Of a stretch of DNA of 64,000 nucleotides, positions 5,026 through 40,500 are shown piece by piece. Each line of letters begins with the position of its first letter. Position 1 is the first letter of the stretch. The notes beneath the pieces are model-generated. The model was given only the letters and a program-made list of their open reading frames with translations. It was not told the origin of the DNA and searched no databases. The translations under genes were made by a program, and so were the position numbers. Source of the stretch: Bacteroidota bacterium (GTDB taxonomy: Bacteria; Bacteroidota; Bacteroidia; Palsa-965); contig PLYR01000145.1 of the NCBI GenBank assembly GCA_003153435.1, forward strand, positions 20,034 through 84,033. Reading direction: 5' to 3'.

Positions 5026-5051
5026 CTTCTGCACTCATCTGCACTCAATTC

Positions 5052-15181: not shown

Positions 15182-16786
15182 ATGGGTGTAAAAAGTCTAT
15201 TAACACTATACATTACGATGTCTAAAACAACTTCTGATGATTTGTTTCAATTGATTCATTCGCTAACCAAAAGCGAAAAGAGACATTTTAAGATATACGC
15301 ATCCAGAGTCAGCAGTGAAGAAGGAAAAAAATTCATTCATCTTTTTGATCTGATCCATGCACAGAAGAGGTATGATGAAGCGGCATTAAAAAAGGATTCG
15401 AAACTTAATCCAAGGCAGATCCCAAATCTTAAGGTACATCTCTATAAACAAATCCTCTTGTCCGTTAAAATGATTAATACTTCGGATTGTGTTGAAGTGG
15501 AAATCAGGAATCTTATTGATAGTGCGCAGTTGCTTTATAATAAATGTCTGTATAAACAGTGCATTGCAATGCTCGATAAAGCAAAGAAACTCGCAGTTCT
15601 CACCGACAGAGATGTACTGCATCTCGATATTCTGGAGCTTGAACGGACTGTTTTAAATCAAACGGTTTCTGCGAATAATGAAGATCGGGTGAAAGCGGTG
15701 GTGGCGGAAACGCGAGCTCTTTCGAAGAGCATCCGGAACATCAATATTTTTGCAAATCTTTCCTTGCGTTTGAATTCATTCTATGTGAAAATGGGATTCA
15801 TTCGTGGAGAGAGTGACCTCAAAAAGGTCAAGAAAATATTCATCCGTTATATGCCAGAATATGACGAAGCCAAGCTTTCTTTTTATGAGAAAGTCTATCT
15901 ATACTGTTGCTATACCCAGTATTATTATTTTATTCAAGATTTTCAGAATGTCAGGGTTTATGCTCTTCGATGGGTCGGACTTTTTGAAGCGGACCAGCAA
16001 AAAATCAGAAATAATCTGGAGAGTTATATACGAAGCTTGAATTACCTGCTTATGGCACAGAACAAACTGATGCTTTATGATGAATTCAGCGCCACTTTGA
16101 AAAAGCTCGTTGCTCTAAAGAGGGATAAGAGTATTAATCTGACGGAAAACATTAATCTGGTCATGTTCCGAACGATTTATGTTCATGAAATAAACAGACA
16201 TTTTATGCTTGGGGAGTTTACTTCCGGAACCCGCATCGTCACTCGTCTTGAACACGAGCTTAATGCATTAATTCCAAAACTGGATAAGCATTATCTCCTG
16301 ATCTTCTATTATAAAATAGCATGCCTGTATTTTGGAGCAGGGGAATACAAACGGGCCATTTTCTGGTTGAACAAAATAATCAATTTCCAGGAGGATGACG
16401 TAAGGGTTGATATCAGTTCTTTTGCCCGGATACTTTCACTGATCAGTCACTATGAGCTAAAGAACTATGATCTTTTGGAATATCAGATCAAATCGACCTA
16501 CAGGTTTCTTGCTAAAAACGGAAACCTGGGGCTTTATCAAAAAATCATTCTTGGTTTTATCAGAAAATTATCAGGAGGGATGAATGAGAAAGGCATTCGG
16601 ACTGAATTCATAAAACTTAAGAATTCTCTGGTCAAGCTTCAGGAAGACCCTTTTAACAGGAAGGCCTTTGTTTACTTCGACATCATTTCCTGGCTAGAGA
16701 GTAAAATTGAGTCCAGGCCTGTCCAGGAAATAATAAAAGAAAAAGTAAAAAATAAGCTGCTCTCTAAAAATCTGGTAGAGTTATAA
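15182..16786 (+). CDS. Hypothetical all-alpha (TPR-like) protein
   Basis: It is a long, uninterrupted ORF of 534 aa. It is rich in K/L/Y and has no recognisable catalytic motifs. An alternative ATG lies at 15221. It is divergent from the leu operon and convergent with the DUF4249 gene. Confidence 0.5.
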   Translation: MGVKSLLTLYITMSKTTSDDLFQLIHSLTKSEKRHFKIYASRVSSEEGKKFIHLFDLIHAQKRYDEAALKKDSKLNPRQIPNLKVHLYKQILLSVKMINTSDCVEVEIRNLIDSAQLLYNKCLYKQCIAMLDKAKKLAVLTDRDVLHLDILELERTVLNQTVSANNEDRVKAVVAETRALSKSIRNINIFANLSLRLNSFYVKMGFIRGESDLKKVKKIFIRYMPEYDEAKLSFYEKVYLYCCYTQYYYFIQDFQNVRVYALRWVGLFEADQQKIRNNLESYIRSLNYLLMAQNKLMLYDEFSATLKKLVALKRDKSINLTENINLVMFRTIYVHEINRHFMLGEFTSGTRIVTRLEHELNALIPKLDKHYLLIFYYKIACLYFGAGEYKRAIFWLNKIINFQEDDVRVDISSFARILSLISHYELKNYDLLEYQIKSTYRFLAKNGNLGLYQKIILGFIRKLSGGMNEKGIRTEFIKLKNSLVKLQEDPFNRKAFVYFDIISWLESKIESRPVQEIIKEKVKNKLLSKNLVEL

Positions 16787-16807: not shown

Positions 16808-17608
16808 TTAAGGAAGCTGGATGGTTCTCTTTCGATAAGCATAAGCTCCGAAGGATCCCAGTCCCCCATTGCTAATATTCGTCACAGGATTGGCCGAAGG
16901 AGCTGAAAACGGACCACCGGCGGTAAGTGTTCCTTGCAAGGTATTATAGAAATCATAAGAATTTTTATCAAAACAAACCAGGTCCACCCTCACACTATCG
17001 CCGAAGAGCATTTCAGAATTTCGTAACCGTACATGCTGAGCGTTCCCGTTTATAAGCTTATCGCTGATTACCCTGTTATCGACGAGGTCGTTAAGCAGGA
17101 TTCCATTTCGGTAAAGACGAAAACCGTAATAATTTCCCAAGGCCGTTGGATCAGTAAAGGAGAGTGTTACCGAATAGCTTCCGATGTTTCCATTTCTCGG
17201 GGTGCCAGGTCGGTAAGCAGAACTGATAGAATCAATTGACACGGTATCAGGCATAGTGGAGATGGAAGTATAGACTTTTCCCGAGGAAGTCACACTCAGG
17301 GTATAGGTATTACCGATTGTGCCGACAAGCGTTGATGTCATGTAATTCCCGGGAGAGCTTTCATGAAGGGTTTCCGCATGACCAGCATTGTCAGAGATGA
17401 TGACTGTGGCTCCGGAGAGAGGATTAAACCCTGCTGCACCGAAATAATTCGTTGTAGTGCTCAGTTTTATAAGATAGGGGCCTGGATAATTATCTACATG
17501 CCCTTCAATGACCACCTTTGGGGAGACTGAATTCAGATCGATGGTTATCACTTCCTGGCAGGAAAAAAGGCCGCAGATCAAGATGAATAGTGGAATGAGC
17601 TTTTTCAT
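16808..17608 (-). CDS. DUF4249-family lipoprotein. This is the usual partner of non-SusC TonB-dependent receptors in Bacteroidota.
   Basis: The lipoprotein signal is MKKLIPLFILICGLFSC. It is 266 aa. It lies 2 bp downstream of the TonB-dependent receptor on the same strand. Confidence 0.45.
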   Translation of the reverse strand: MKKLIPLFILICGLFSCQEVITIDLNSVSPKVVIEGHVDNYPGPYLIKLSTTTNYFGAAGFNPLSGATVIISDNAGHAETLHESSPGNYMTSTLVGTIGNTYTLSVTSSGKVYTSISTMPDTVSIDSISSAYRPGTPRNGNIGSYSVTLSFTDPTALGNYYGFRLYRNGILLNDLVDNRVISDKLINGNAQHVRLRNSEMLFGDSVRVDLVCFDKNSYDFYNTLQGTLTAGGPFSAPSANPVTNISNGGLGSFGAYAYRKRTIQLP

Positions 17609-17610
17609 TA

Positions 17611-19938
17611 TTAGAACTTAAAATTATAAGTGACAGAAGGTATAACTCCGAAAAGCCAGGTCTTCACGGCTTGTGTTTGTGCAGGGTTGTTAGGATCCTG
17701 TTGGAACTGGATGGAATAAGCATTGTGCCGGTCATAGACATTGTAGACTGAAAAGTCCCACTCTCCTTCAAAATGTTTTCTCTTGGGCCGCTTCCAGGTG
17801 GCGGAGAGGTCAAGTCTGTGATATGCCGGCATACGATATCCATTCCGGTCACTATAATAAGAAACGGTATGGCCCTGGAACTGATATTGGGCAACAGGAA
17901 AAGTAACCGCATTACCGGTTGCATAAACCCATACGGCTCCAAAGCTCCATTTTTTACCGGCATTATACATCAGTACTGTGGATATGTCATGGGTACGGTC
18001 TTGTTTTGCGGGATACCAGGAGTCGTTATTGATATACTGGAATTGACGTTCCGTGCGAGATAAGGTGTAAGCCACCCATCCGGTAAACTTTCCGACATTC
18101 TTGCGAATCAGAAATTCAGCTCCATAGGATCTTCCTTTTCCAAAATAAAGCTGAGATTCCACCACAGGATTAAGTACAATATTAGCTCCGGGTTTATAAT
18201 CAATCTGGTTCTGCATGTCTTTATAATAGACTTCAACGGAAGTTTCAAACATGTTGTCTTTAAGGTTCCGGAAATAGCCTAAGGCATATTGATCACAGAG
18301 CTGTGGCTTAATGACGTTACTAGAAGGAACCCAGAGATCGGTTGGAGTTGACGCGGTAGTATTAGACAGAAGCTGGATAAACTGACTGGTACGGGTATAG
18401 GAGGCCTTTAAGGAACTGACTTTGTTCAGAACATACCTCGCTGAAATCCGTGGTTCAAGACTTCCGTATTGTTGAATAACCGTTGGTTTTTTGTAAACAG
18501 TAGTGTCGGTTATAGCCCCGGTGCTGTCATAGTGAAATACTTTCCCAGGCCCGAGCTGATCGTAGAGGACATAACGGAGTCCTGCAACAATGGTAAGTTT
18601 CGGGGTGATGGTAATCTCATCAGAAACATAGACCGCATCTTCAAGAGCATATTTCTGATCAATATTTAAGTCGTTGATCAATCTGGTGCCGTTGGTCGAG
18701 AGTGTACCAGGGGTGAAAACATGGTAGATTGACTGAAGTCCGAATTTGATTTTATTTTTATCGTTCGGATAATATTCGAACGCTTCTTTCAGAGAGTAAT
18801 CCCTTACGCCAGAGTTGATCGCAAAATTGCTCGAGCCTGCCGTTATGTTAATCGTGTATTGATAATCACTGACGATGGCAGAGGTGTTTAGGAATAACTT
18901 GTCGTTAAAGATATGGTTCCAGCGAAGGGTACCTGTTGCATTCCCCCAGTTGATACCGAAAAGTCCGGAAGCTCCGAACACATCTCTCCCGAAATAGCCT
19001 GAAAGAAAGAGCCTGTCTTTCTCCGTTACTTTATAATTCGCTTTTACATTAAGGTCATAAAAGTATAAGGATGAAGATCGAATAGCTGCGGAGCTGCCAA
19101 AAAGATGGAGGAACACATCCGCATAAGTCCTGCGTCCTGAAATAAGAAATGATCCCCGATCTTTGACAATAGGTCCTTCAATGGTTAGTCTGGAAGCGAT
19201 AAGTCCGATCCCTCCTTTTACGGTGTACTTTTTTTCGTTGCCTTCATTCATATGGACATCGAGGACAGAAGCAAGCCTGCCACCATAATCCGCAGGAATT
19301 CCACCTTTTATGAGGTTCATGTCTTTAACGGCATCCGCATTAAAAACTGAAAAGAACCCAAGAAGGTGTGAGGCATTATAAACGGTTGCATCATCAAGCA
19401 GAATCAGGTTTTGGTCAGAACCTCCTCCACGCACATAAAAGCCGGTATTCCCTTCACCTGCCGACATTACCCCTGGAAGCAGAGTGATTGTTTTCAGAAT
19501 ATCGGTCTCGCCAAATAGCACTGGAATAGCTTTGATGGTTTGCATATCCAGGTGATCTGTACTCATTGTTGTGGAGGTAACATTGTTATCTCTTTTCGTT
19601 GCCAGGATCTCCACACCTTGAAGGGCTACACTTTCATCACTCAATTCAACCGTAAGCTTTTCGTTTTTCTGCAGATCAATACTAAATGTCTTAGGTCTCC
19701 GTCCTACAAAACTGATCTCAATATTATATTTTCCCTGTGGAAGGGTGATGGAAAAAAAGCCATAAGCATTCGTTGTTGTACCTGTTTTCGCTTCCGGGAT
19801 TGCAATGCTTGCTCCGATTACTGTTTCCCCGGTTGCAGAATCTTTGACTATTCCGCTGATAGTAAATTTCTGTTGAGCACTGAGTAGTAAAGGACCTAAT
19901 AAAAAAAAGCTGAAAGCAAGGAAGCGTATCAATTTCAT
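17611..19938 (-). CDS. TonB-dependent outer-membrane receptor. It has an N-terminal carboxypeptidase-regulatory-like domain, a plug and a 22-strand barrel.
   Basis: It has a signal peptide. The CarbopepD_reg-like start is FTISGIVKD..TGE. A plug region is present. The barrel ends with the C-terminal motif ...YNFKF. Confidence 0.8.
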   Translation of the reverse strand: MKLIRFLAFSFFLLGPLLLSAQQKFTISGIVKDSATGETVIGASIAIPEAKTGTTTNAYGFFSITLPQGKYNIEISFVGRRPKTFSIDLQKNEKLTVELSDESVALQGVEILATKRDNNVTSTTMSTDHLDMQTIKAIPVLFGETDILKTITLLPGVMSAGEGNTGFYVRGGGSDQNLILLDDATVYNASHLLGFFSVFNADAVKDMNLIKGGIPADYGGRLASVLDVHMNEGNEKKYTVKGGIGLIASRLTIEGPIVKDRGSFLISGRRTYADVFLHLFGSSAAIRSSSLYFYDLNVKANYKVTEKDRLFLSGYFGRDVFGASGLFGINWGNATGTLRWNHIFNDKLFLNTSAIVSDYQYTINITAGSSNFAINSGVRDYSLKEAFEYYPNDKNKIKFGLQSIYHVFTPGTLSTNGTRLINDLNIDQKYALEDAVYVSDEITITPKLTIVAGLRYVLYDQLGPGKVFHYDSTGAITDTTVYKKPTVIQQYGSLEPRISARYVLNKVSSLKASYTRTSQFIQLLSNTTASTPTDLWVPSSNVIKPQLCDQYALGYFRNLKDNMFETSVEVYYKDMQNQIDYKPGANIVLNPVVESQLYFGKGRSYGAEFLIRKNVGKFTGWVAYTLSRTERQFQYINNDSWYPAKQDRTHDISTVLMYNAGKKWSFGAVWVYATGNAVTFPVAQYQFQGHTVSYYSDRNGYRMPAYHRLDLSATWKRPKRKHFEGEWDFSVYNVYDRHNAYSIQFQQDPNNPAQTQAVKTWLFGVIPSVTYNFKF

Positions 19939-20082: not shown

Positions 20083-20114
20083 ATAAAAAAGGACCCGTGA
20101 GGGTCCTTTTTTTG
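20083..20114. terminator. Rho-independent terminator, bidirectional in form
   Basis: The sequence is AAAAAA-GGACCC-GTGA-GGGTCC-TTTTTTT. It sits 19 bp downstream of the stop of the giant minus-strand gene. Confidence 0.75.
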
Positions 20115-20132: not shown

Positions 20133-23100
20133 TTATTGGGTCCGAACGAGTGTGATAAATCCTTGCATATCATACACCACTCCATCGTCTCCCTTAGCAT
20201 GAATCACATAGAAGTAGGTGCCATTGGAGCAAACCTCACCAGCCATGGTGTGTCCGTCCCATGCTACACCAGGTGCTATGAGCTGAGCCATGGCTACTCC
20301 CCAACGGTCGTATATTTTGCAATCAAAGTAATCAATGCCGGCATAATTCACGTGCCAGTCGTCATTGATTCCGTCTCCGTTAGGTGTAAAAATGTTAGGT
20401 GCAGATATGAAAGATTTGATCTCTGATACATCAATGACTACACTATGGGTACTGGTACAGCCACTAGCATTGGTGACTGTAAGAAGTACGGTATAAGTTC
20501 CCGGAACGGTATAGAGATCATTCGCTCCGTTCTGTCCGTTTGCAGTGTTTCCGTCTCCGTAATTCCAGCTCCAGGTAGTTGCAGTGGCAGAACTGGAATC
20601 TGTAAATCCAACATAGAGTGGGGGAGTTCCGCTAAGGGTGCTCGGAATAAAGTTTGCGTTCACCGTGTTGACGGTTACGGGGAAGTTGGCACTGGCTGTG
20701 GTTCCGCATCCGTTAGTTGCGCTTACCGAATAGTTGCCTGTAGAATGAACCCAGATGGAGGCATTGCTCGATCCGGTACTCCACAGATATGGGCCTCCTC
20801 CATTTGCAGTTAACTGAACAGAATCTCCGTTACACATACCACTCTGACCGGTAATAGTAGGGGAGGGCTTCGGTAATACCGACATAGCGATGGTGGTAGA
20901 ATCTGTGCCGCATGCATTGGTTACATAAACCACATACACTCCGGCCGTATTAACTGTAATCGAGTCGCTGGTTGAGCCTGTGCTCCAGGAGTAAGTTCCT
21001 CCTCCACCGGCCGACAGGATAACATTGGTGCCTGCACAGAAGTTGGTGTTTCCTCCATTTGTAGAGATGGTAGGCACTGGTTTATTTCCGGTGTTCAATA
21101 TAGTTGTTGTTACAGATGCAGTACAGCCGTGAGCATCAATGACGTTGCAGGTATAGACTCCGGGTGTAAGCGTGGTAGCATTCGCTGTATTTCCTCCGGA
21201 AGGTAACCAGCTCCAGGTATAACCGGAAGTTCCTCCGCTAGGGGTGGCAGAAGCCGAACCGTCAGCTTGACCACATGTTGCTGCCGTAGGTGCAGCTGTT
21301 ACAGCAAGAACAGCAGGCTGGGTAACGGTAAATACCTGAGGAAGGGTACATCCATTCTGGTCAGTTACCGTGCAAGTATAGTTGCCAGCACTAAGCCCGC
21401 TTGCGGTTGCCCCTGAACCTCCTGATGGGGTCCAGTTATAGGTATAGATTGCTGTACCACCGCTTACAGTTGCAGTTCCACTGCCATTGGAGCTGCCGTT
21501 ACAACTTGCATTTGTTTGAGAAGAAACAATAGCGAGGGGGGTAGGCTGAGTGATGGTATAGATGTGTGAGGTCGTACAACCATTTGCATCTGTAACATTA
21601 CAGGTATAAGTACCTGCTGCAAGACCGCTTGCAGTCTGAGCACTTCCACCGGATGGTGTCCAGCTATAGGTATAAGCTGAAGTTCCACCGGCGACTGTAG
21701 CTGTGGCAGATCCTGTATTTCCACCGTTACAAAGGGCATTTGCCTGAGCCGAAGTGATTGAGAGTACGGCAGGCTGAGCAATGATTACAGATTGAGTGGA
21801 GACGCAGTTGCTGGCATCCGTTACAGTGCAGACATAAGTTCCGGCACAAAGAGACGAAGCTGTAGCAGCATTACCACCGCCTCCAGACCAGCTGTAAGCA
21901 AAAGGTGCAGTGCCACCGGTAGCGTTAACTGTAGCAGATCCGTTGCAGGATGCGTTACAAAGAGCCGCGTTATTAGAAGCAATACTCACACTAGGCGCAC
22001 CGGCAGAACTAATTGAAATGAGAGAGTCAAGGGTACAGCCATTAGCATCCTGAACAGTAACCGTATAACTTCCCGCAGCCAGACCAGTCACCGAATTGGT
22101 TCCTTGTCCACCACCTGGAGCAGGTGTCCAGTTATAAGTGTCAGCACCGGTTCCACCACTTGCAGTGACGGAAGCAGTACCGGTAGAGGTACCACAACCC
22201 GTTTGAGTACTTGCAGGTACCATGGAAAGCGAAGATATAGGTTGAGTTACAGAAACCGTGCTGGAGGTCGTACAACCGTTCGCATCAGTGATGTTACAAG
22301 TATAGGTGCCAGCCGCAAGACCTGTGGCAGTCACGGCGGTTTGTCCTCCGCCAATAACCCCGCCGGTCCAGTTATAAGTATATCCTATAGTGCCTCCGGA
22401 TACAGCTACGCTAGCTGTTCCTGAGGAACCACCTTTACAATTAACACTGGTTTGTGAAGGCGCAGCGCTTAGTACAGCAGGCGCAGCGATCGTTACTACC
22501 TGGCTTGTTACACAATTATTATTATCTGTCACGAAGCAGGTATAGCTGGTGTTTGCGCAAAGTGCGGTTGCCGTTGCAGCAGTTCCTCCAATGGGTGACC
22601 AAGAATAGGTATAAGTGCCGGCTCCTCCGCTTGCGGCAACTGTGGCCGATCCGTCACAGGAAGCGTTACACAGTGCAGGAGCTTGAGAAGCGATACTTGC
22701 TGAAGGTCCGCCAGCAGAGACAATATTATAAGTGGTAGACTGAGCACAATTATTTGCATCATTAACAGTTACGGTGTATGCACCTGAAGCAAGACCCGTG
22801 GCTGTTGGCGTTCCTTGTCCACCTCCAGGTGCAGGAGACCATGTATAGGTATCAGCACCTGTTCCGCCGGAAGCAGTAACTGTTGCAGTACCAGTGGCAA
22901 TTCCACAACCTGTATTGGTAGATGAAGGGGTAAGTGAAAGAGCACTCGCCGGTTCAGTTACAGCAATTGAGGCGGAAGTGGTACAACCGTTTGCATCGGT
23001 AATGTTACAGGTATAAGTTCCTGCGGCCAGTCCGGTTGCGGTAGAAGCAGTTTGTCCTCCTCCGATTACACCACCGGTCCAGGCGTAAGTATAGCCCGTT

Positions 23101-26100
23101 GTGCCACCCGATACCGTAACAGAAGCTGTTCCACTGGAACCACCGGTACAAAGTGCACTGGTTTGAGTTGGATTAGCGCTTAAAGCTACAGGGGCTCCGA
23201 TGGTTACATTCTGAGAGGTAACACAATTATTGGCATCGGTTATGGTACAAACATAAGTGGTATTCGCACAAAGTCCTGAAGCGGAGATTCCTGTTCCGCC
23301 TGAAGGTGACCAGGAATAGGTATACGCACCAGTACCACCGCTAGGTGCTACAGTAGCACTTCCATCGCAAGATGCACTACATTTTGCAGGAGCCTGAGAA
23401 GCAATAGATACAGAGGGTCCTCCAGCTGATGTTATGGTATAAAAGGATGTTTGAGGACAAGCATTCGCATCATGCACGGTCAATGTATATGTTCCTCCTC
23501 CAAGTCCTGTTGCAGTACTGGTTCCCTGTCCTCCTCCCGGTGCCGGTGCCCAGGTATAGGTGAAAGCACCGGTCCCGCCAGAGACAACCGCATTGGCTGT
23601 ACCGGTTGAAATTCCACATCCGGTGGTTGTGGAAGAAGGGGTGATTGAAATAACAGGTGGCTGAGTAATATTTATTACCTGAGGATGCGGGCAATTGTGT
23701 GAATCTGTTACTGTACAAGTATAGGTCCCTGCACTCAGGTTACTTGCTGTTGCAGAGTTTCCACCTGAAGGGGTCCACACATATATATACGCAGGTGTAC
23801 CTCCTGAAGGAGTAACGGTCGCGCTGGCTGTGCTGTTACCGCTACAAGATTCATTCAGCTGGGTGGCAGTGGTAGTTAAAGGCCCTGGCTGGACAATGTT
23901 AAAAGTGTGAGAGAGAGGACAACCATTTGCATCATGAATTGTGCAGGTATAGGTTGTTCCTCCAACAAGACCGTTGGCGGAATTAGTTCCTTGTCCACCA
24001 CCCGGTGCAGGAGCCCAGGTATAGGTAATAGCACCAGTACCGCCAGATGCGCTTGCAGTGGCTGTACCGTTGTTGTTTCCGTTACAGGTCACATTATTTT
24101 GAGAGGGAGCGATTGCTAAGGCACTTGGTTGTGTAATTGCAAAAGTTTGTGCAACCGGACAGTTGTTTGCGTCATGAACAGTACAGGTATAAGTAGTTGC
24201 ACCTACCAAGCCAGTAGCAGTGGCTGTGCCTTGTCCACCACCCGGAGCCGGAGCCCAGGTATAAGTATATCCTGCAGTACCACCGGAAGCAGTTGCCGTA
24301 GCGGTTCCATTATTGGAGCCATTACAATTCACATTTGCCTGGGTAGGAGTGATAGAAGGTGATGTACCGGGCTGAGTGATGGCAAAGGTTTGTGCTTTAG
24401 GGCAGCCATTCGCATCGTGAATGGTACAGGTATAGGTTGCGGGTCCGGAAAGTCCGGTCGCTGTGTTGGTTCCTTGTCCTCCTCCGGGTACAGGTGCCCA
24501 GGTGTAAGTGATTGCACCGGTACCGCCTGAAGAAGTTGCAGTGGCGGTTGCATTACTGCCCCCAAAACAACTTACGTTAGCCTGAGTAGGTACAATAGAT
24601 AAGGCGGATGGTTGTGTGATAGCAAAGGTTTGGGCCTTTGGACATCCATTTGCATCATGAATCGTACAAGTATAGGTGGTAGCTCCTGCTAATCCTGTTG
24701 CGGTGTTGGTTCCCTGACCACCACCCGGAGCGGGAGCCCAGGTATACGTTATAGCACCCGTTCCACCGGAGGCTGTTGCTGTTGCTGTTCCATTGGCAGA
24801 ACCGTTACAATTTACATTGGCTTGTGTTGGAGTAATCGATAATGCAGAGGGATTCGAAATTGTATACGTATGCGAAGCGGAGCAGCCGTTTGCTGTAGTT
24901 ACCGTACAAGTATAAGTGCCGGAGCCAAGTCCTGTTGCGGTTGCGGAGCCTTGCCCGCCTCCTCCATATCCAGCCCCAGTCCAATTATAGGTATAAGGGG
25001 CGTTTCCACCAGAAGCAGAAGCTGTAGCTGTTCCATTGCCGGAACCAACGCATGTAACATTAGAAGAGCTTGGTGTTATGGTTGCGGGTACAGCAAATGT
25101 AGCCAGCGTGCTGACGGTATAGCTACAACCATTTCCGGGAGTAACGGTAACCGTATAGGTACCACTTGCGTTGATAGTGATTACAGAGCCGGTAGTCGAT
25201 CCTACAATTCCGGGGCCGGTCCATGAAAAGGTTGTACCGGTCGGGCTTGGAGGAGCCGTAACAGTCATTGTGGAACCAATACAAGCTGCGGGCGTAGAAA
25301 CATTAAGTTGTTTAGGTCCGCAGGATCCATCGATATAAGCGTAACCGAAGTGACCACCGTGACTGCAGCCTGCAGCCGAAAAATAGATAGAGATCGTCTG
25401 ACCTGCAAACCCCGACAAGTCTAAAGTGTTTGACTGCCAGCCGGAAGAATAAACACCTGCGGCTACTGTGGAATATCCAGAAGGCGGTGATCCTGAAGTA
25501 CACTCCTGATAATATTGAAGACAAGGGATGACATGACCTGCTCCGTCGAAAACGTCCACCTCGAAATAAGGCATATCACCTAAGGGATGGCCTCCATCCT
25601 GCAGAATAACTGCATAGTTATAGGTGTAAAGGGCGTTGGTGGCATCCACAGTGAACTGTTGTTCGAGTAACTCTGCTCCGGCGTAAAAGCCTCCGCCTTG
25701 ACTAGCGGTAGTGGAGGTTTGTGCATAGGAATATGGAGGATAAATCCAGTACGGGGGCGTTGGAGAATAAGCTATATTCGGATCAATATACCCCCCACCA
25801 CACGAGCCTCCTTCAAGATTGAAATTATAGCCTCCAAGTCTGCAGGCATAGTTTCCACCACCCGGATCAACCATGGGTAAGCCTGAATAGGGGTCACTGC
25901 CTCCGCTGACAATGGTATGGGCATTACAGGATCCTACAGAGGCATTGGCTCCGCTTGGGCTGTATATTGTCCAGGAATTAACAAACATACTCAGGCCGTT
26001 CGGAATAGCACCTGCATTAAAACCATAGGCACCAGTCCAACCGGTGTAATCACCGGTTTCAAAGTCAGCATTATTACAACCAGCAAGAGGGTGTGGGTTC

Positions 26101-26450
26101 ACATGTGCAGCTCTTTGAGCTTTTACCTCAGCCTCCAGATCTTTGATGTGCTTGGCTTTATCGCGTTTAGGAGGAATGATATTATCGGGAATATGGTATT
26201 TGTCCTTCACGTAATGCGACTGAAGATGAAACATGTAATGCTTCTTCTCCGACTCCGCCATAGAGCCACGGAAGTTCATTGTATTCAATTCTGCTTGTGC
26301 CGCGGCGAAATCAAATCCGTTCAGACTATCACCTGCATAAAAATGATAGTCAACCTGATTCGAGGTAGGACCAATCGGGTTTCTTTCTTGTGCATAAGAA
26401 AAGGCGACAAGAAGGAAGAAGAAAAGTAAGGAGAGTAGTTTTTTATTCAT
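20133..26450 (-). CDS. Giant SprB-like cell-surface adhesin secreted by the T9SS. It has a signal peptide, an N-terminal domain of about 380 aa of unknown function, about 19 SprB-type repeats and PKD-like domains. It ends in a T9SS type-B CTD (gliding-motility-associated C-terminal domain).
   Basis: The start is placed at the ATG at 26450 (MNKKLLSLLFFFLLVAFSYAQ). The listed TTG at 26471 only adds 7 residues. The repeats have the form SGGTG.ITYTWAP.PGGGQGT.TATGL..GTYTCT..DANGC. The last roughly 85 residues match the type-B CTD (NIFTPNGDGINDDW...YDRWG). Confidence 0.8.
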   Translation of the reverse strand: MNKKLLSLLFFFLLVAFSYAQERNPIGPTSNQVDYHFYAGDSLNGFDFAAAQAELNTMNFRGSMAESEKKHYMFHLQSHYVKDKYHIPDNIIPPKRDKAKHIKDLEAEVKAQRAAHVNPHPLAGCNNADFETGDYTGWTGAYGFNAGAIPNGLSMFVNSWTIYSPSGANASVGSCNAHTIVSGGSDPYSGLPMVDPGGGNYACRLGGYNFNLEGGSCGGGYIDPNIAYSPTPPYWIYPPYSYAQTSTTASQGGGFYAGAELLEQQFTVDATNALYTYNYAVILQDGGHPLGDMPYFEVDVFDGAGHVIPCLQYYQECTSGSPPSGYSTVAAGVYSSGWQSNTLDLSGFAGQTISIYFSAAGCSHGGHFGYAYIDGSCGPKQLNVSTPAACIGSTMTVTAPPSPTGTTFSWTGPGIVGSTTGSVITINASGTYTVTVTPGNGCSYTVSTLATFAVPATITPSSSNVTCVGSGNGTATASASGGNAPYTYNWTGAGYGGGGQGSATATGLGSGTYTCTVTTANGCSASHTYTISNPSALSITPTQANVNCNGSANGTATATASGGTGAITYTWAPAPGGGQGTNTATGLAGATTYTCTIHDANGCPKAQTFAITQPSALSIVPTQANVSCFGGSNATATATSSGGTGAITYTWAPVPGGGQGTNTATGLSGPATYTCTIHDANGCPKAQTFAITQPGTSPSITPTQANVNCNGSNNGTATATASGGTAGYTYTWAPAPGGGQGTATATGLVGATTYTCTVHDANNCPVAQTFAITQPSALAIAPSQNNVTCNGNNNGTATASASGGTGAITYTWAPAPGGGQGTNSANGLVGGTTYTCTIHDANGCPLSHTFNIVQPGPLTTTATQLNESCSGNSTASATVTPSGGTPAYIYVWTPSGGNSATASNLSAGTYTCTVTDSHNCPHPQVINITQPPVISITPSSTTTGCGISTGTANAVVSGGTGAFTYTWAPAPGGGQGTSTATGLGGGTYTLTVHDANACPQTSFYTITSAGGPSVSIASQAPAKCSASCDGSATVAPSGGTGAYTYSWSPSGGTGISASGLCANTTYVCTITDANNCVTSQNVTIGAPVALSANPTQTSALCTGGSSGTASVTVSGGTTGYTYAWTGGVIGGGQTASTATGLAAGTYTCNITDANGCTTSASIAVTEPASALSLTPSSTNTGCGIATGTATVTASGGTGADTYTWSPAPGGGQGTPTATGLASGAYTVTVNDANNCAQSTTYNIVSAGGPSASIASQAPALCNASCDGSATVAASGGAGTYTYSWSPIGGTAATATALCANTSYTCFVTDNNNCVTSQVVTIAAPAVLSAAPSQTSVNCKGGSSGTASVAVSGGTIGYTYNWTGGVIGGGQTAVTATGLAAGTYTCNITDANGCTTSSTVSVTQPISSLSMVPASTQTGCGTSTGTASVTASGGTGADTYNWTPAPGGGQGTNSVTGLAAGSYTVTVQDANGCTLDSLISISSAGAPSVSIASNNAALCNASCNGSATVNATGGTAPFAYSWSGGGGNAATASSLCAGTYVCTVTDASNCVSTQSVIIAQPAVLSITSAQANALCNGGNTGSATATVAGGTSAYTYSWTPSGGSAQTASGLAAGTYTCNVTDANGCTTSHIYTITQPTPLAIVSSQTNASCNGSSNGSGTATVSGGTAIYTYNWTPSGGSGATASGLSAGNYTCTVTDQNGCTLPQVFTVTQPAVLAVTAAPTAATCGQADGSASATPSGGTSGYTWSWLPSGGNTANATTLTPGVYTCNVIDAHGCTASVTTTILNTGNKPVPTISTNGGNTNFCAGTNVILSAGGGGTYSWSTGSTSDSITVNTAGVYVVYVTNACGTDSTTIAMSVLPKPSPTITGQSGMCNGDSVQLTANGGGPYLWSTGSSNASIWVHSTGNYSVSATNGCGTTASANFPVTVNTVNANFIPSTLSGTPPLYVGFTDSSSATATTWSWNYGDGNTANGQNGANDLYTVPGTYTVLLTVTNASGCTSTHSVVIDVSEIKSFISAPNIFTPNGDGINDDWHVNYAGIDYFDCKIYDRWGVAMAQLIAPGVAWDGHTMAGEVCSNGTYFYVIHAKGDDGVVYDMQGFITLVRTQ
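20900..25270 (-). repeat. Intragenic tandem array of about 240-bp (about 80-aa) diverged SprB-repeat units, with roughly 17-19 copies
   Basis: The translated product shows periodic recurrence of the TYTW/AP.PGGGQGT and DANGC motifs. The region is Gly/Thr/Ala-rich and high in GC. This generates many spurious open frames on the plus strand. Confidence 0.7.
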
Positions 26451-26988: not shown

Positions 26989-27372
26989 TTAAAGCTTTGA
27001 AAGACTCATTCCTTCTTTATTCTGTTGTTCAAGGCTCCATTTATCAGTGGTGGTAATACTTAACCATTCCTTTCCTGATTTGCGATAGAATCTTACGTTT
27101 AAGCCGAAAACATCTCTGAAATCCTGTTCAAGTTCTGAACTGCTCATTTCAGGAGATATGGTAACAGTACCTTTATTATGCATTATTCTTACCTCCCCAA
27201 GCTTTTGACTATTGCTGGCTACGGATTTGGGGGAGGGAGAAGCCATTGCACCCGAAGCTTTTCCCAAAAATTCAATTTTCAGATAAGGAAACAAATTATT
27301 GAATTCTTCCTGTAATGCATGAATTTTGCGATGGTCATTGATTATGATTTTCATGGAAATTAGAATTTGCAT
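26989..27372 (-). CDS. Hypothetical small protein
   Basis: It is a 127-aa ORF with no recognisable motif. It lies between the AT-rich promoter region of the giant adhesin gene and the REC-CRP regulator gene. Confidence 0.35.
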   Translation of the reverse strand: MQILISMKIIINDHRKIHALQEEFNNLFPYLKIEFLGKASGAMASPSPKSVASNSQKLGEVRIMHNKGTVTISPEMSSSELEQDFRDVFGLNVRFYRKSGKEWLSITTTDKWSLEQQNKEGMSLSKL

Positions 27373-27479: not shown

Positions 27480-28541
27480 TTAATTCTTTACACATGAAAG
27501 TTTGTCGTAGTCGAGTACACTTATAAGCCGGCCTTTAATCTCGATAAGCTTTTCATCTTTCAAGTCGCTTAACATCCTGATGGCTGTTTCAGGCGCTGTT
27601 CCGGCCAGGTTTGCCAAATCTTCTCTCGAGATGCTGATACTGAAATTAGCTTCTCCATCTTTCTTGTACCTGTTGTAAAGTGTGACAAGCGCTTCCGCCA
27701 CCCGTTTACGAACGGAATTGTAGGCAAGTTTGAGGAGTTGGTCTTCTTTGTCAATTAAATCATTGGAAAGCATCTTGATAAATTTCTTTGAAACATCAGC
27801 ACTTTTATAAATCAGGGAGAAAAAATTATCTTTCGGAATCATGCAGATTTCAGAGTCTTCCAAAGTCATCGCCTCCTCTGTGTATTTGCTTTCTTCAAGC
27901 AAGGATAAGTGACCGAAAAATTCACCTTCCTTATAAAGACCATTGATGAATTCTTTCCCGAATTCATTTGTTTTAAAGGTTTTCACCTTTCCTTTAATAA
28001 CGAAATAAATTCCTTTAGGGTATCCTCCTGAGCTATATATTGATTCTTTCTTGCGGTAGTGATGAATATCCCGGTCTTCAGAAAGTTTTTTAAGGGTATC
28101 CAACCCTCCTGTTTCATTCATAAAGTCCTGAAGCCCTTCCAGACTTCTTTCGAATTTCTTCTTGAGATTATCAGCCTTTTTCAGTCTGCTGTCAATAGCA
28201 TTTAGCAGTTCCATATCGTCGAAAGGTTTGGTGATATAATCATCGGCTCCCATTTCCATTCCTTTTCTGAAATCATTCCTTTCGGTTTTGGCGGTAAGGA
28301 ATATAAAGGGGATATTGGAAGTTTCAGGGTTTTTGCCAAGCATATGCAATACGCCATAGCCATCCAGATGAGGCATCATGATATCACAAATAATTAAATC
28401 AGGCATTTCCGCAGAAACCATTTCCATACCTTCTTTTCCATTTGAAGCAGCCCTTACCTTATATCTGGCAAGTTCAAGCATTTCAGTCGTATTTTCCCGA
28501 AGTTCCGTGTTATCTTCGATTAAGAGGATTTTTTTGTGCAT
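27480..28541 (-). CDS. Fusion regulator with a CheY-like receiver domain, a cNMP-binding (CRP/FNR effector) domain and a Crp-type HTH
   Basis: The receiver motifs are LLIEDN...DLIICDIMMP...LTAK. A cNMP beta-roll with G-rich motifs follows. The C-terminal HTH is REDLANLAGTAPETAIRML. The start is placed at the ATG at 28541, 6 bp inside the listed TTG. It is a paralogue of the gene at 39439-40500. Confidence 0.75.
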   Translation of the reverse strand: MHKKILLIEDNTELRENTTEMLELARYKVRAASNGKEGMEMVSAEMPDLIICDIMMPHLDGYGVLHMLGKNPETSNIPFIFLTAKTERNDFRKGMEMGADDYITKPFDDMELLNAIDSRLKKADNLKKKFERSLEGLQDFMNETGGLDTLKKLSEDRDIHHYRKKESIYSSGGYPKGIYFVIKGKVKTFKTNEFGKEFINGLYKEGEFFGHLSLLEESKYTEEAMTLEDSEICMIPKDNFFSLIYKSADVSKKFIKMLSNDLIDKEDQLLKLAYNSVRKRVAEALVTLYNRYKKDGEANFSISISREDLANLAGTAPETAIRMLSDLKDEKLIEIKGRLISVLDYDKLSCVKN

Positions 28542-28637
28542 ATTCAAGTTGTTAATTATGATTGGCTCCTCTTTAAATTAAACAAATGTTAAGAATTCTT
28601 GCGATACCAAAATTAGGGAATGGATCCTTGGTAAACA

Positions 28638-32286: not shown

Positions 32287-32333
32287 AGAAGATTCAATTA
32301 TCCGCGGTTATTGACAATTGTTATTTTATGCAT

Positions 32334-33425
32334 TCATGGATTAGCCGTCTGAAATGGAATTGTAAAGTAAAGGGTACTACCAAAACCTATTCGGCTCTCC
32401 ACCCAGATCCTGCCACGAGCCTTCTCGACAATTTTCCTCACTATGGAAAGGCCCACTCCTGTACTTTCCACATCTTTCCGGTGGTGGGCCTTCACAAAGA
32501 CGTCAAATATTTTTTCAAAATAGCGTTCTTCTATCCCCATTCCGTTATCCTCTACAAAGAACATCCATTCATTCCCTTTCTTGTCCCACCCAATCTTTAT
32601 TACTCCATCCGGTTTGTCCATGAATTTTACGGCATTCCCAATCAGGTTTTCAAAAACCTCTCTAAGGTGCGTCTTATTGAAAAGCACAGTTGGAAACCGT
32701 TCGGATAAAATGAATTTGATCTTAATCCTGCTGGTATAGCGCTTTGCAATTTCATCCAGCAAATCATTTAAGTTAATCGTTTCAGCCTCCTCCTGGTTGT
32801 TCCCCACCCTGAAATACTCCAGGAGGTCAACGATAAGTGCATTCATGTAGTTGGCTTCCTTTTGTGCTAAATGAAACAGGGTTATAAATTCTTCATCCAT
32901 TTGAGCGGAATATTTTGCAAGACTCAGGTCAAGCACGCCTTTGATTCCATTCAAAGGGTTTTTGAGATCATGAGCTGCAACCCTGGTCAACATTTCCAAT
33001 TCCTTGTTGGCTCTTTCAAGATCCTCCACCAATTGCTTAAGCTGCTCCTCATACCTGATTCGTTCGGTGATATCCTTACCGGATGAGACAAAATGAGTGA
33101 TCTCCCCGGTATCATCACATACCGGAGTAATAGTCTTTTCTTCGAAATAGATCTCTCCGTTCTTTTTTTTGTTACAAACTACTGCGCGAAAGGGTTTCTT
33201 GGCTAGGATCGTCTCCCACATACCTCGGTAGTAATCTTTAGTAGCCCTGCCTGACTGAAGGAATCGTGGATTCTTCCCTAATACCTCCTCAGAAGTATAT
33301 CCTGTTATGGTCTCAAAAGCAGGATTTACGTAGGTTATAGCTCCATCTTTGGTTGTAAAAAATATATTATCGGAGGTGATCTTAATCGCAGAGTCAAACC
33401 CAATGGGGACTGTACTGATATTCAT
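32334..33425 (-). CDS. PAS-domain sensor histidine kinase (cytoplasmic)
   Basis: The PAS motifs are ITYVNPAFETITGY, EEVLGKNPRFLQS. The HisKA H-box is AAHDLKNPLNGI. The HATPase_c boxes N (LIGNAVKF) and G1/G2 (DNGMGI, GVGLSI) are present. Confidence 0.75.
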   Translation of the reverse strand: MNISTVPIGFDSAIKITSDNIFFTTKDGAITYVNPAFETITGYTSEEVLGKNPRFLQSGRATKDYYRGMWETILAKKPFRAVVCNKKKNGEIYFEEKTITPVCDDTGEITHFVSSGKDITERIRYEEQLKQLVEDLERANKELEMLTRVAAHDLKNPLNGIKGVLDLSLAKYSAQMDEEFITLFHLAQKEANYMNALIVDLLEYFRVGNNQEEAETINLNDLLDEIAKRYTSRIKIKFILSERFPTVLFNKTHLREVFENLIGNAVKFMDKPDGVIKIGWDKKGNEWMFFVEDNGMGIEERYFEKIFDVFVKAHHRKDVESTGVGLSIVRKIVEKARGRIWVESRIGFGSTLYFTIPFQTANP

Positions 33426-34368: not shown

Positions 34369-35595
34369 ATGAAAACAGGATACAAAGCACAAACGATGAT
34401 CGTCTTAGGTGGATTGCTGCTACAATCATTATGCACCATTCCCCTTCATGCACAATCAGATTCAACCGGAACGGCTCCAAGTGAAATCCCCAACAAAGCC
34501 AAAGGGGGAGGTACGAAATTTCTTTTGGCAGGAAAAGCGCAGCAGTCGTGGACAAATACCAAAGTAGATGGAAGTCCTAATTCTCATACCTTCTATCCGG
34601 ATGCATTAATGCTGATGCCTTTGGTAAAGTTGAACGATCGGCTCTTTTTAGATGCACAAATCGAGGTGGACCCCAACACTACCGGAGGGGCGGCCATCAA
34701 TCTGAACGAAATGATCGTGTATTTCCGTGCCACCAATTGCCTAAATATCTTCGCCGGAGATTTCAGTCCGAAGTACGGAATGTACATGGGTGTTTTGGAT
34801 GATTTTACAAACCGTTATGCTACTAACCCGATAGGAATGAACAGGGGGCCTGGTACTCAAACAGGAATCGGGGTTCAAGGAGGCATTCAAGCAGGGACCA
34901 CAAAGCTAAATTACCAGTTCTATCTTGCTAATGGTCCTCAGTTATTGGTTGACAGCACGACCCAGGGTAATTCTAACCCAACGGGGCAGCTTAGTTATGG
35001 AAATTACGCGGATAACAACAACAACAAAGCAATTGGAGGATCTATCGGTTTTCTTCCATTATCCAACTCCAATCTGCAGATTGATATATCTGGACAAGTA
35101 GCCGCTAAAACGGGAAATCTGGGAACGATGTATGAAAATGTAAGCAGCACCTCCTGGGCAGCGGATCTTAACTATTATCACTTGTTTAATCCTCTTATGG
35201 TCAGGGTACAAGCTGAATATAACAGCACCGTTACCCAAAATAAGACCTATCCCTGGAAGTCAACGGCAGACAGCACTAAATCACTGGTTCCTGCATTTAA
35301 CAATCAACTCAGTGGCTGGTTTGTGGGTGCCACACTTCGTCTTGCAGGTGTAAAAAGTGTCATCCTTAGCAATTTTGAATTAGGAGCACGGGTTGGTGGG
35401 TATACCCCTCCACAGTATACAGGACTTGGAACTACTCCTGCCGTGTGGGGTGAGAATCCGGAACAGCAAACCACTATATGTCTTACCTATTGGTTCACCT
35501 GGAAAACGCCGCTCAACTTTGCTTATGATGTATTGAAAACAACCGGCGGACCTACGATAACCACCTACACTGCACGATTAATTTATTTCTTCTAA
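34369..35595 (+). CDS. Outer-membrane beta-barrel (porin-like) protein
   Basis: It has a signal peptide. Amphipathic beta-strand periodicity runs throughout. The C-terminus ends ...ARLIYFF with a terminal Phe. A small cytochrome c gene follows after 20 bp. Confidence 0.45.
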   Translation: MKTGYKAQTMIVLGGLLLQSLCTIPLHAQSDSTGTAPSEIPNKAKGGGTKFLLAGKAQQSWTNTKVDGSPNSHTFYPDALMLMPLVKLNDRLFLDAQIEVDPNTTGGAAINLNEMIVYFRATNCLNIFAGDFSPKYGMYMGVLDDFTNRYATNPIGMNRGPGTQTGIGVQGGIQAGTTKLNYQFYLANGPQLLVDSTTQGNSNPTGQLSYGNYADNNNNKAIGGSIGFLPLSNSNLQIDISGQVAAKTGNLGTMYENVSSTSWAADLNYYHLFNPLMVRVQAEYNSTVTQNKTYPWKSTADSTKSLVPAFNNQLSGWFVGATLRLAGVKSVILSNFELGARVGGYTPPQYTGLGTTPAVWGENPEQQTTICLTYWFTWKTPLNFAYDVLKTTGGPTITTYTARLIYFF

Positions 35596-38142: not shown

Positions 38143-39414
38143 ATGCAACACGTATCACTCTTATTCCATAAATTAGCTGGTAAAATAGACCAGTATATGA
38201 TCAAGAATCTTGAAAGTAATGACATTTTCAAAATATTGTTCGATTCAGCCGGAGAAGGCTTAGTGCTTGCAGACAAGAAAGGAACGATGTTGATGGTCAA
38301 TACCAGGATGGAGGAGATGTTTGGATATGGAAAGGATGAGCTTATCGGTCAACAAGTAGAAGTTTTGATTCCCGAATCTCTTCATTCCCGGCACACTGCC
38401 CATCGGGAAAACTATAATAAACAGCCCAAAAAACGTTCAATGGGTGAAGGCATGGATCTGGTCGGCTGCCGGAAAGACAAAACGACATTACCGATAGAGA
38501 TCAGCCTTAACTATTTCTATTCCGGAGATGAAATGGTTGTGATGGGACTTGTCACCGATATTACCGAAAGAAAAAATACTCAAACACAATTGCTCCAGTT
38601 GAATACGGATCTTGAACAAAGAGTAACGGAACGGACCCAAATGCTAGCCGGTGCCATCAAGGAGTTGGAATATTCAAATAAAAGTCTGGAGAAAGCAGAA
38701 GAAGACCTGAAAAAAGCCCTGGAAGTTGAAAAAGAATTGGGTGAGCTGAAATCCCGATTTGTGTCTACCGCTTCCCATGAATTCCGGACTCCCCTCGCAA
38801 CGATTTTATCATCCGTTTCTCTGATTGCCAGATACGACAAACCAGAAGATAACGAAAAACGACAAAGGCATATTGAGCAGATTAAATTATCGGTAAGTGA
38901 ACTTCGGGAGATCTTAGATGATTTCCTCTCATTGAGTAAACTGGAGGAAGGCAAGATGAGAAATTCCCCGGATACTTTTGAGCTGACCGCTTTTTGCAAA
39001 AATATTGCTGGCGAAATGCAGATGCATGCAAAGTCAGATCAAAAAATTGAATACGTGCATGAAGGTCCAACGGAGATCCATCTCGACCATCAATTACTCA
39101 AAAATGTATTGGTCAATCTGCTTTCCAATGCCATTAAGTTCTCCGGAGAAGGATTGGAAATAACTATAACTTCGATTGTAAAAAATGGAATGCTTGAGAT
39201 TGCAGTGAAGGATAAGGGGCTCGGTATGTCAACGGAAGACCAAAAGCATTTATTTGAGCGTTTCTTCCGGGGGAAAAATGTAGCCGCGATCCAGGGAACT
39301 GGCCTGGGCCTCAATATTGTAAAAAAGTATGTGGAGTTGATGGAAGGCGAAATAAACTTTCAAAGCGAAATTAACAAAGGAACTACCTTTACAGTGTCAT
39401 TTAAATTAGCCTAA
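38143..39414 (+). CDS. PAS-domain sensor histidine kinase (cytoplasmic)
   Basis: It has a PAS domain (GTMLMVNTRMEEMFGYGKDELIGQ), a coiled-coil linker and an H-box (ASHEFRTPLATI). The HATPase_c N/G boxes are present. A REC-CRP regulator gene follows after 24 bp. Confidence 0.75.
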   Translation: MQHVSLLFHKLAGKIDQYMIKNLESNDIFKILFDSAGEGLVLADKKGTMLMVNTRMEEMFGYGKDELIGQQVEVLIPESLHSRHTAHRENYNKQPKKRSMGEGMDLVGCRKDKTTLPIEISLNYFYSGDEMVVMGLVTDITERKNTQTQLLQLNTDLEQRVTERTQMLAGAIKELEYSNKSLEKAEEDLKKALEVEKELGELKSRFVSTASHEFRTPLATILSSVSLIARYDKPEDNEKRQRHIEQIKLSVSELREILDDFLSLSKLEEGKMRNSPDTFELTAFCKNIAGEMQMHAKSDQKIEYVHEGPTEIHLDHQLLKNVLVNLLSNAIKFSGEGLEITITSIVKNGMLEIAVKDKGLGMSTEDQKHLFERFFRGKNVAAIQGTGLGLNIVKKYVELMEGEINFQSEINKGTTFTVSFKLA

Positions 39415-39438: not shown

Positions 39439-40500
39439 ATGTCAAGCACCATTTTACTCATTGAGGACAACACGGCTATGCGGAATAATATTTCAGAAAT
39501 ATTAGAGCTGGCTGGGTATAAGGTATTTCTTGCAGAAAATGGCAAGGTTGGTGTTGATTTAGCTAAAAAGGAAAAGCCGGATTTGATTGTTTGTGATATC
39601 TCCATGCCAGAGTTAGATGGTTATGGCGTTTTGCATATCCTGGGAAAGACTGCCGAGACCTCGGGTATTCCATTCATTTTCCTGACGGCAAAAACCGAGA
39701 AAGCTGATTTTCGAAAGGGTATGACCTTGGGTGCAGATGATTACCTGACTAAACCTTTCGACGATGTGGAACTGTTGGATGTGGTGGCCATTCGATTAAA
39801 AAAAGCATCCCTGCTTAAAAAGGAGTTTGAGAAAACTGCCAAAGGACTCAATGAGTTTATTGATAATGTGAGTGAAAGTCAGGGAATAAGCACCTTTACA
39901 AACAGTCGGAGCCTTAAAACACATAAGAAGAAAGAACTTGTTTTTTCGGAAGGGAATTACCCGATTGGAATCTACCTGGTTAATAAAGGAAAAGTTAAGA
40001 CGTTCAAATCGAATGAAGCCGGAAAAGAACTGATTACCGGTATTCACAAAGAAGGTGATTTTCTAGGCTATGTTCCGCTCTTGGAGGACATTGCTTACAA
40101 TGAATCTGCTGAGGTGCTGGAGGATGCAGAAATTTACATGATTCCCAAACAGGATTTCTTTACTTTGGTTTATAACAATAAAGAAGTATCAAGAAAATTT
40201 ATTCAGTTACTATCCAACAATCTTTCTGAACGAGAAGACCGGCTCATCAAACTGGCTTATAACTCCGTACGAAAAAGAGTGGCAGAAGCCCTGGTCATGC
40301 TTCATGACCGGTACCAGAGTACAAACTCAGCCAAAACCCCAATCTCCATTAATCGTGAAGACCTGGCAGGAATTGTTGGAACGGCTACAGAATCGGTCAT
40401 CCGTACCTTAGGTGATTTTAAAGATGAAAAGCTGATTGAAATTCAAAAAGGAGATATATCTGTTCTGAATATCGATAAATTAACAAAGCTGAAAAATTAA
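39439..40500 (+). CDS. Receiver / cNMP-binding / Crp-HTH fusion regulator. It is a paralogue of the gene at 27480-28541.
   Basis: It has the same three-domain order. The receiver motifs are LLIEDN, DLIVCDISMP, LTAK. The HTH is REDLAGIVGTATESVIRTL. It shares about 55-60% identity with the other copy by eye. Confidence 0.75.
   Translation: MSSTILLIEDNTAMRNNISEILELAGYKVFLAENGKVGVDLAKKEKPDLIVCDISMPELDGYGVLHILGKTAETSGIPFIFLTAKTEKADFRKGMTLGADDYLTKPFDDVELLDVVAIRLKKASLLKKEFEKTAKGLNEFIDNVSESQGISTFTNSRSLKTHKKKELVFSEGNYPIGIYLVNKGKVKTFKSNEAGKELITGIHKEGDFLGYVPLLEDIAYNESAEVLEDAEIYMIPKQDFFTLVYNNKEVSRKFIQLLSNNLSEREDRLIKLAYNSVRKRVAEALVMLHDRYQSTNSAKTPISINREDLAGIVGTATESVIRTLGDFKDEKLIEIQKGDISVLNIDKLTKLKN

Follow-up and report, generated by a model that had tools for sequence, protein, structure and literature searches.

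An SprB-repeat adhesin gene with a type-B sorting domain and no linked porP/sprF gene in a Bacteroidota contig

Introduction

This work concerns a 2105-amino-acid (aa) adhesin encoded on a 64,000-nucleotide (nt) stretch of DNA from a Bacteroidota bacterium (Bacteroidia, Palsa-965; GenBank assembly GCA_003153435.1, contig PLYR01000145.1, positions 20,034 to 84,033 of the forward strand). The whole stretch is referred to as the window, and positions are counted from its first letter. The protein combines an N-terminal head domain, a stalk made up largely of SprB repeats, and a type-B C-terminal sorting domain (CTD) for a type IX secretion system (T9SS); its gene has no adjacent gene for a PorP/SprF-type outer-membrane partner. 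We consider it probable that the gene encodes an intact type-B adhesin with a lectin-like head and an SprB stalk, served by a PorP/SprF-family shuttle that is encoded at an unlinked site.

In Flavobacterium johnsoniae, nine of the 12 type-B substrates adjoin an sprF-like gene; the other three are orphans (Fjoh_1123, Fjoh_1720, Fjoh_4934), taken up by the unlinked SprF-like shuttle Fjoh_1677, and crosstalk with non-cognate shuttles has been demonstrated (PMC12618676). Type-B substrates and PorP/SprF genes were described as "usually clustered" in a 2023 review (PMC10202324).

The adhesin gene and its sorting domain

The gene, its terminal signals, and its main repeat array are located as follows.

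20133-26450, minus strand: whole adhesin gene, 2105 aa and stop codon (list of open reading frames and translation; Pfam and NCBIfam matches)
20136-20405, minus strand: type-B T9SS C-terminal sorting domain, aa 2016-2105 (TIGR04131, PF13585)
21090-25088, minus strand: SprB-type array, 17 units of 75-80 aa, aa 455-1787 (PF13573 and self-profile)
26388-26450, minus strand: signal-peptide-like N-terminus of Sec type, aa 1-21, MNKKLLSLLFFFLLVAFSYAQ (read from the sequence; AlphaFold2 helix)

The sorting domain occupies the extreme C-terminus of the protein. TIGR04131, the type-B model, scores 50.4 bits against a cutoff of 35 over aa 2016-2103 of 2105 (NCBIfam), and PF13585 (CHU_C) scores 59.8 bits against a cutoff of 27 over aa 2016-2101 (Pfam). 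The type-A model TIGR04183 reaches just 23.4 bits, with no passing stretch and at an internal position (aa 1822-1852; NCBIfam), and the CTD of the adhesin is therefore of type B. The signature PN.FTPNGDG.ND ... I..RWG ... WDG ... G.Y.Y ... G.ITL.R is kept, as in 85 other type-B CTDs. SprB repeats are matched by PF13573 in 14 passing stretches (E 6e-101; Pfam). These scores agree with the initial annotation, in which the gene had been read as an SprB-repeat adhesin with a CTD of type B, not type A. Judged by its sequence, the adhesin carries the defining features of a type-B T9SS cargo.

The frame is intact from the ATG at 26450, which gives 2105 aa. The stop-to-stop frame also permits a TTG start at 26471 (2112 aa); the same ATG was chosen by an independent gene call on a contig from a second assembly of the locus (ENA ERZ27254241, contig k141_668470, 117.3 kb). 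The N-terminus, MNKKLLSLLFFFLLVAFSYAQ, runs from a basic N-region through a hydrophobic core to SYAQ, which is A-x-A-like; AlphaFold2 places a helix at aa 3-20, and the whole looks like a classical signal peptide.

The GC content of the gene is raised (0.50 versus ~0.42). Horizontal transfer was considered on this account and rejected: the excess stems from second codon positions (GC2 0.63-0.70, Thr/Gly/Ala/Ser-rich), whereas third positions are not raised (GC3 0.33-0.37), and there is therefore no transfer signal.

Search for a PorP/SprF gene

Downstream of the adhesin gene, the following features were found.

20085-20112, minus strand: intrinsic terminator hairpin (RNA fold)
17611-19938, minus strand: CarboxypepD_reg/Plug/TonB-dependent receptor, downstream of the adhesin terminator
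16808-17608, minus strand: DUF4249 gene, next after the TonB-dependent receptor

The hairpin, of 12 bp, lies 20 nt past the adhesin stop codon (-17.4 kcal/mol, z -5.0; none of 200 shuffled sequences was as stable). Its sequence is AAAAAAGGACCC-UCAC-GGGUCCUUUUUU, in which the core GGACCC-UCAC-GGGUCC is extended by A/U pairs. A consensus terminator scan missed the hairpin, probably due to absorption of the T tract by the A/U-extended stem; direct folding of the region confirmed it. Since this terminator follows, the adhesin gene is monocistronic at its 3' end. The receptor and DUF4249 pair (16808-19938) has no evident tie to the adhesin. Upstream of the gene lie a 540-nt AT-rich spacer, an open reading frame (ORF) of 127 aa without a family, and a regulator with receiver (REC), cNMP-binding, and Crp-type domains.

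A Pfam scan that took in almost every window ORF of plausible gene size (120 aa or longer) gave no match to PF11751 (PorP_SprF), and neither did a rescan of the unassigned window ORFs at E<=1. ORFs 52843-53304, 53346-53846, 63109-63783, and 32328-32708, together with a few overlapping shadow ORFs, stood outside the Pfam scan and were covered by a PorP/SprF hidden Markov model (HMM) built from Pfam-verified examples. Across the six frames of the window, this HMM was run on every stop-to-stop ORF that is 60 aa or longer; its best match (E 3.9) was noise. Precomputed Pfam labels for the 10 kb past each window end, taken from k141_668470, hold no PorP/SprF either.

The claim of the initial annotation that the gene has no adjacent porP/sprF thus extends across the 64-kb window and 10 kb past each end; the case in which such a gene sits just outside the neighbourhood was not encountered, none being present within ~30 kb in one direction or ~47 kb in the other. 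The strong terminator and the TonB-dependent receptor that it had placed downstream were likewise recovered (20085-20112 and 17611-19938). An adjacent PorP/SprF shuttle gene is accordingly a feature that the adhesin lacks, and according to the literature it is not a defining feature of type-B cargo.

Cargo-shuttle linkage in relatives

A trimmed six-sequence alignment of the N-terminal domain (A2) was used to search GTDB species-representative genomes, and gave at least 192 confirmed head-domain loci; the host genome is not one of these representatives, and the best relative among them has 42% identity. An exhaustive search with alignment A1 (199,135 matches) was rejected as a measure of family size: A1 had kept Ig, PKD, and CTD columns, and giant repeat proteins dominated. 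The survey of linkage covers the best 80 of the at least 192 loci, with flanks of up to 8 kb, and is based on local HMMs and simple ORF calling; its loci were chosen by head domain and do not represent all type-B cargo.

The 80 loci contain 85 type-B cargo ORFs and 93 ORFs with the head domain, which is always N-terminal, in proteins of 350-2200 aa. Of the 93, a type-B CTD terminates 71; another 15 run off their contig, and in the remaining 7 the small HMMs detected no CTD. When the neighbours of cargo genes were grouped by homology, the largest group had five members, three of them Pfam-confirmed PorP_SprF; a PorP HMM derived from these five, after iteration to convergence, detected just seven PorP/SprF ORFs in the 80 loci. 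PF11751 matches four of the 65 non-shadow ORFs of 200-480 aa that lie within 2.5 kb downstream of type-B cargo. Cargo genes were taken as evaluable if 1.2 kb or more of sequence lay downstream; of these, 4/78 (5%) have a PorP/SprF gene within 2.5 kb downstream, or 4/67 among those with the head domain. To be an orphan is therefore the usual state in the head-domain family. PF11751 is also absent from 3/3 further homologue loci with precomputed Pfam labels. A homologue of 2207 aa, from another Bacteroidia metagenome-assembled genome (MAG), has the same overall architecture as the window protein (37% identity over ~1900 aa) and no PorP match.

In the initial annotation, the missing adjacent partner was implied to be anomalous. 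This view is not supported by the orphans of F. johnsoniae (PMC12618676) or by the 4/78 linkage in relatives: the supposed anomaly is explained by the published orphan substrates and is the rule among relatives. With an unlinked type-B substrate already explained in this way, the locus is no challenge to the T9SS model.

The CTD of the window protein is 35-46% identical to the CTDs of orphan cargo and 20-30% identical to those of the four PorP-adjacent cargo proteins; these differences are small and come without a tree, and as a predictor of shuttle type they are suggestive only.

Tandem pairs of head-domain genes were observed in 9/80 loci (L015, L017, L027, L032, L045, L048, L052, L060, and L080), and the head-domain family therefore expands by local duplication.

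Proposed secretion and display of the adhesin

From the established behaviour of type-B substrates, the adhesin would be exported to the periplasm by Sec, and its CTD would be recognised at the SprA/Sov translocon. A PorP/SprF-family shuttle in the outer membrane, encoded elsewhere in the genome, would extract the protein and retain it at the surface, where it would probably be held non-covalently via the uncleaved CTD. The ~20 tandem Ig-like modules would form a long stalk that projects the head away from the cell, and the head would bind a ligand, most likely a glycan. The protein may be a static adhesin, or it may be moved along the gliding track as SprB is. The host probably has a T9SS, since its contig also carries two genes for cargo with type-A CTDs: one of 479 aa (49539-50978, minus strand), with no other recognisable domain, and one of 882 aa (L089:2570-5218), past the right window end.

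Several points weigh against this reading. No PorP/SprF gene of the host is present within the ~84 kb of genome inspected, and the unlinked shuttle is what we infer; the same ~84 kb hold no T9SS core gene. The AlphaFold2 model of the N-terminal region has an overall predicted local distance difference test score (pLDDT) of just 72.9, and its insertion and linkers are unreliable. In Cytophaga hutchinsonii, deletion of porV also alters the localisation of type-B proteins (PMC8564354), and a PorP-type shuttle may therefore not be required in every case.

An adhesin of this kind could instead take a route without a PorP/SprF shuttle, in which PorV or another FadL-like barrel collects the protein, or in which it is released into the medium; the missing partner would then reflect a mechanistic peculiarity of this cargo class. 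Such a route would fit the ~95% of surveyed type-B cargo genes that have no linked PorP/SprF, the lack of PorP/SprF in the ~84 kb around the adhesin gene, and the shifted distribution of type-B CTD proteins after porV deletion in C. hutchinsonii (PMC8564354). We nevertheless regard it as unlikely: all type-B substrates tested so far, orphans included, needed a PorP/SprF-family protein (PMC12618676; PMC10202324), the CTD of the adhesin keeps the conserved type-B signature, and a gene that is unlinked is not for that reason absent from the genome. Retention by an unlinked PorP/SprF-family shuttle is the reading that we prefer.

The N-terminal head domain

The region between the putative signal peptide and the stalk is composed as follows.

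26097-26333, minus strand: helical pre-domain, aa ~40-118 (AlphaFold2 helices and alignment A1)
25281-26081, minus strand: conserved N-terminal head domain, aa ~124-390, predicted CBM/MAM-like beta jelly roll (alignment and AlphaFold2)
25695-25817, minus strand: Gly/Tyr/Pro-rich loop insertion inside the head, aa ~212-252 (alignment A1, AlphaFold2, and composition)

Neither Pfam nor NCBIfam matches any part of residues 1-400, and six isolated head domains gave no match even at E<=10, which bears out the earlier remark that this N-terminal domain has no recognisable family; the head-domain profile has no sequence match to any PDB chain. The core of the head is marked by invariant or nearly invariant motifs: CNNxDFETGDxTGW, HT, DPY, RLG, YAVxL, GH (H288), PYF, W, DC, and GGHFGYAYxD. 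Structure prediction, which the initial annotation had recommended for this region, was carried out with AlphaFold2 and an alignment (mean pLDDT 72.9); the model has a beta-sandwich core, with the C-terminal half at ~90, and a jelly-roll fold whose best matches are non-catalytic carbohydrate-binding modules (CBMs) and MAM domains. The head is thus, as a predicted fold, a jelly roll of the CBM/MAM class, without membership by sequence in a described CBM or MAM family. Identity to jelly-roll structures of this class (porphyran-binding CBM of a T9SS protein, PDB 8xmz; TmCBM61, PDB 2xom; CBM4-2; RPTPmu MAM) is just 10-17%, and compared with a minimal CBM the head is about twice the size and has large insertions, conserved Cys, and its own GGHFGYAY motif. 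Because the CTD is the cell-proximal end, the N-terminal head is plausibly the distal, ligand-binding tip.

The region had also been described as rich in Gly/Tyr/Pro. A patch of this kind is real (G, Y, and P six times each in the 41 residues of aa ~212-252, with pLDDT <50); it is, however, a lineage-specific insertion and not part of the conserved domain: in A1, only the adhesin and P0001, the homologue closest to it, have the patch, and the other sequences show a gap. The pre-domain is predicted to contain helices at aa 48-61, 66-84, and 98-115 (pLDDT about 70-84); its motifs YxFYxGDxLxGFD ... KYH(I/L) are found in P0002-P0004 and P0007-P0009 (A1) and are thus conserved in some homologues.

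The head could alternatively be an enzyme, such as a GH16-like glycanase or a protease-associated module, and the protein a surface-tethered enzyme. This is quite improbable: the best fold matches are the non-catalytic CBMs and MAM domains, the conserved columns of A1 and A2 show no E-x-D-x-x-E motif of GH16 type, and at thresholds up to E<=10 neither Pfam nor NCBIfam gives an enzyme family. The invariant acidic residues of the first and last strands (FE.G ... AY.D) we take to resemble the structural Ca2+ site that is common among CBM folds, and count against an enzymatic head.

Twenty-three homologues of the N-terminal region, from Bacteroidia MAGs, are fused to SprB repeats, PKD domains, and type-A or type-B CTDs. 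The 582-aa protein P0004 (L002:8001-9749 and L003:252-2000) has the same N-terminal helical segment and head domain as the adhesin; both metagenome samples that contain the window contig (ERZ27254241 and ERZ28653421) also contain P0004, and the two proteins are probably paralogues within one genome. P0004 ends in a sequence (FPNPASGFVTIEY...) that looks like a type-A CTD motif cut short. Because P0006 is, like the type-A cargo encoded at 49539-50978, 479 aa long, this cargo was considered as a head-domain paralogue and rejected; the likeness is confined to the type-A CTDs.

The stalk

Apart from the SprB-type array, the stalk includes the following features.

25095-25280, minus strand: degenerate Ig-like linker unit, aa ~391-452 (self-profile and homologue alignment)
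24531-24770, minus strand: second SprB unit, aa 561-640 region, site of an indel between assemblies (assembly comparison)
20631-21083, minus strand: two Ig-like units, aa ~1790-1940 (sequence and Cys positions)
20427-20624, minus strand: PKD domain, aa 1943-2008 (PF18911, E 3e-13; PF00801, E 1e-5)

Segmentation with a jackhmmer self-profile resolved 17 SprB-type units, with a 3 x 3-unit super-repeat (237 aa) among them. In the DNA, a gapless repeat finder gave periods of 240 and 711 nt with 60-77% identity, and the units are old; Tandem Repeats Finder detected no DNA-level array in the gene because the units are just 60-77% identical. The linker between head and array is matched by the self-profile over aa 375-452 (E 4e-20), and the motif CxGxxxxLTAPxG..Y.W marks the equivalent unit 3' of the head domain in homologues (A1). 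The region of aa ~1790-1940 has no Pfam match at E<=0.01; we infer two Ig-like units from its sequence, each with one Cys pair (1805/1847 and 1873/1915). Pfam bounds the PKD match at aa 1945-2007.

By exact look-up, no identical entry was found for the 2105-aa protein. The second assembly encodes a protein of 2185 aa (k141_668470; L001:3249-9806), which is the window protein with one additional 80-aa in-frame unit after residue 560 and is otherwise identical. Unit 2 of the window is a hybrid of units 2 and 3 of k141_668470 (91% and 89% nt identity), which have a 47-nt exact word in common; the difference between 17 and 18 units indicates unit-length recombination or collapse in short-read assembly. 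That the gene as a whole is decaying or misassembled, with its partner lost, its product non-functional, or its length an assembly artefact, is very improbable: the two assemblies do differ by exactly one 80-aa unit, and the hybrid unit 2 with its 47-nt shared word could come from collapse or recombination alike, but both versions keep 6.3 kb of open reading frame and do not differ in any aa outside the indel, the repeats have diverged enough (60-77% nt identity) for most of the array to assemble unambiguously, nothing is missing from the terminal modules (putative signal peptide, head, and a CTD that passes its curated cutoffs), and homologues of the same architecture exist. None of the three alternatives is favoured by the data.

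Comparison with known systems and wider meaning

The three F. johnsoniae orphans, compared here by description and not by sequence, are likewise putative adhesins with a TIGR04131/PF13585 CTD and no adjoining porP/sprF; the head domain and the 17 SprB units are specific to the window protein, and secretion through a PorP/SprF-family shuttle encoded elsewhere is the likeness that would be expected. With SprB of F. johnsoniae (sprCDBF operon) the adhesin has in common PF13573 repeats as the bulk of the protein, a type-B CTD, and a presumed filamentous adhesin shape. SprB has a size of about 6500 aa; the window adhesin is about one third of this and has a distinct N-terminal head. The context also differs: sprF lies downstream of sprB and sprC and sprD upstream, whereas the adhesin gene is followed by the terminator, TonB-dependent receptor, and DUF4249 gene and preceded by the 127-aa ORF and REC-cNMP-Crp regulator. 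The adhesin should not be classed as an SprB orthologue; just the repeat type and the CTD class are common to both. By family name, it also resembles the CHU_C surface proteins of C. hutchinsonii, large multi-Ig/PKD passengers that end in PF13585. Proteins of the CHU_C type, also named for a 'gliding motility-associated C-terminal domain', are numerous in each genome and scattered.

What is new here is modest, namely an unannotated and widespread head-domain family and the low cargo-shuttle linkage within it. The survey suggests that tight linkage of cargo and shuttle, generalised from F. johnsoniae, is rare in at least one large family of type-B adhesins, which is relevant to the prediction of cargo-shuttle pairs from synteny. 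The head would be a widespread unannotated module at the tip of T9SS adhesins, probably glycan-binding, and could merit a family description.

Tentatively, we raise the possibility that the head represents an undescribed, phylum-wide jelly-roll family of at least 192 loci, with the signature CNNxDFETGDxTGW ... GH ... PYF ... GGHFGYAYxD-C, mostly combined with type-B CTDs and linked to porP/sprF in ~5% of cases. Its loci span Flavobacteriales, Chitinophagales, Sphingobacteriales, and Saprospirales-like MAGs. If this were true, a whole class of type-B adhesins would rely on generalist, unlinked shuttles, and the textbook rule of "usually clustered" genes would reflect a Flavobacterium-centred bias.

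Other features of the window

No tRNA gene and no Rfam match was found in the whole 64-kb window. Five ORFs have no Pfam family at E<=1: 15182-16786 (+), 34369-35595 (+), 56901-58154 (+), 58393-60252 (-), and 26989-27372 (-); weak TPR-like hints are present in the first of these only.

Two paralogous regulators, each with receiver, cNMP-binding, and Crp-type helix-turn-helix domains, are encoded at 27480-28547 (-) and 39439-40500 (+), each near a PAS histidine kinase (32334-33425 and 38143-39414); a plain Crp-family protein is encoded at 56067-56831 (-). Neighbours of the regulators include genes for hemerythrin, TerB, DoxX, tandem USP, Nramp, cytochromes c, and rhodanese-MBL proteins, with cbb3-maturation genes past the right end, and suggest an oxygen/redox-stress island.

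The left window end (14-6575, continuing into L088:1-10000) is the edge of an aryl-polyene/flexirubin-like lipid cluster. Inside the window, it comprises a GT2-DUF2062 gene, an amine-oxidase-like flavoenzyme, and an unusual fusion of 1287 aa that joins MMPL, acyltransferase, and SAM-methyltransferase (1162-5025); just outside lie genes for ketosynthases, ACP, and LolA-like, ApeI-like, and polysaccharide deacetylase proteins.

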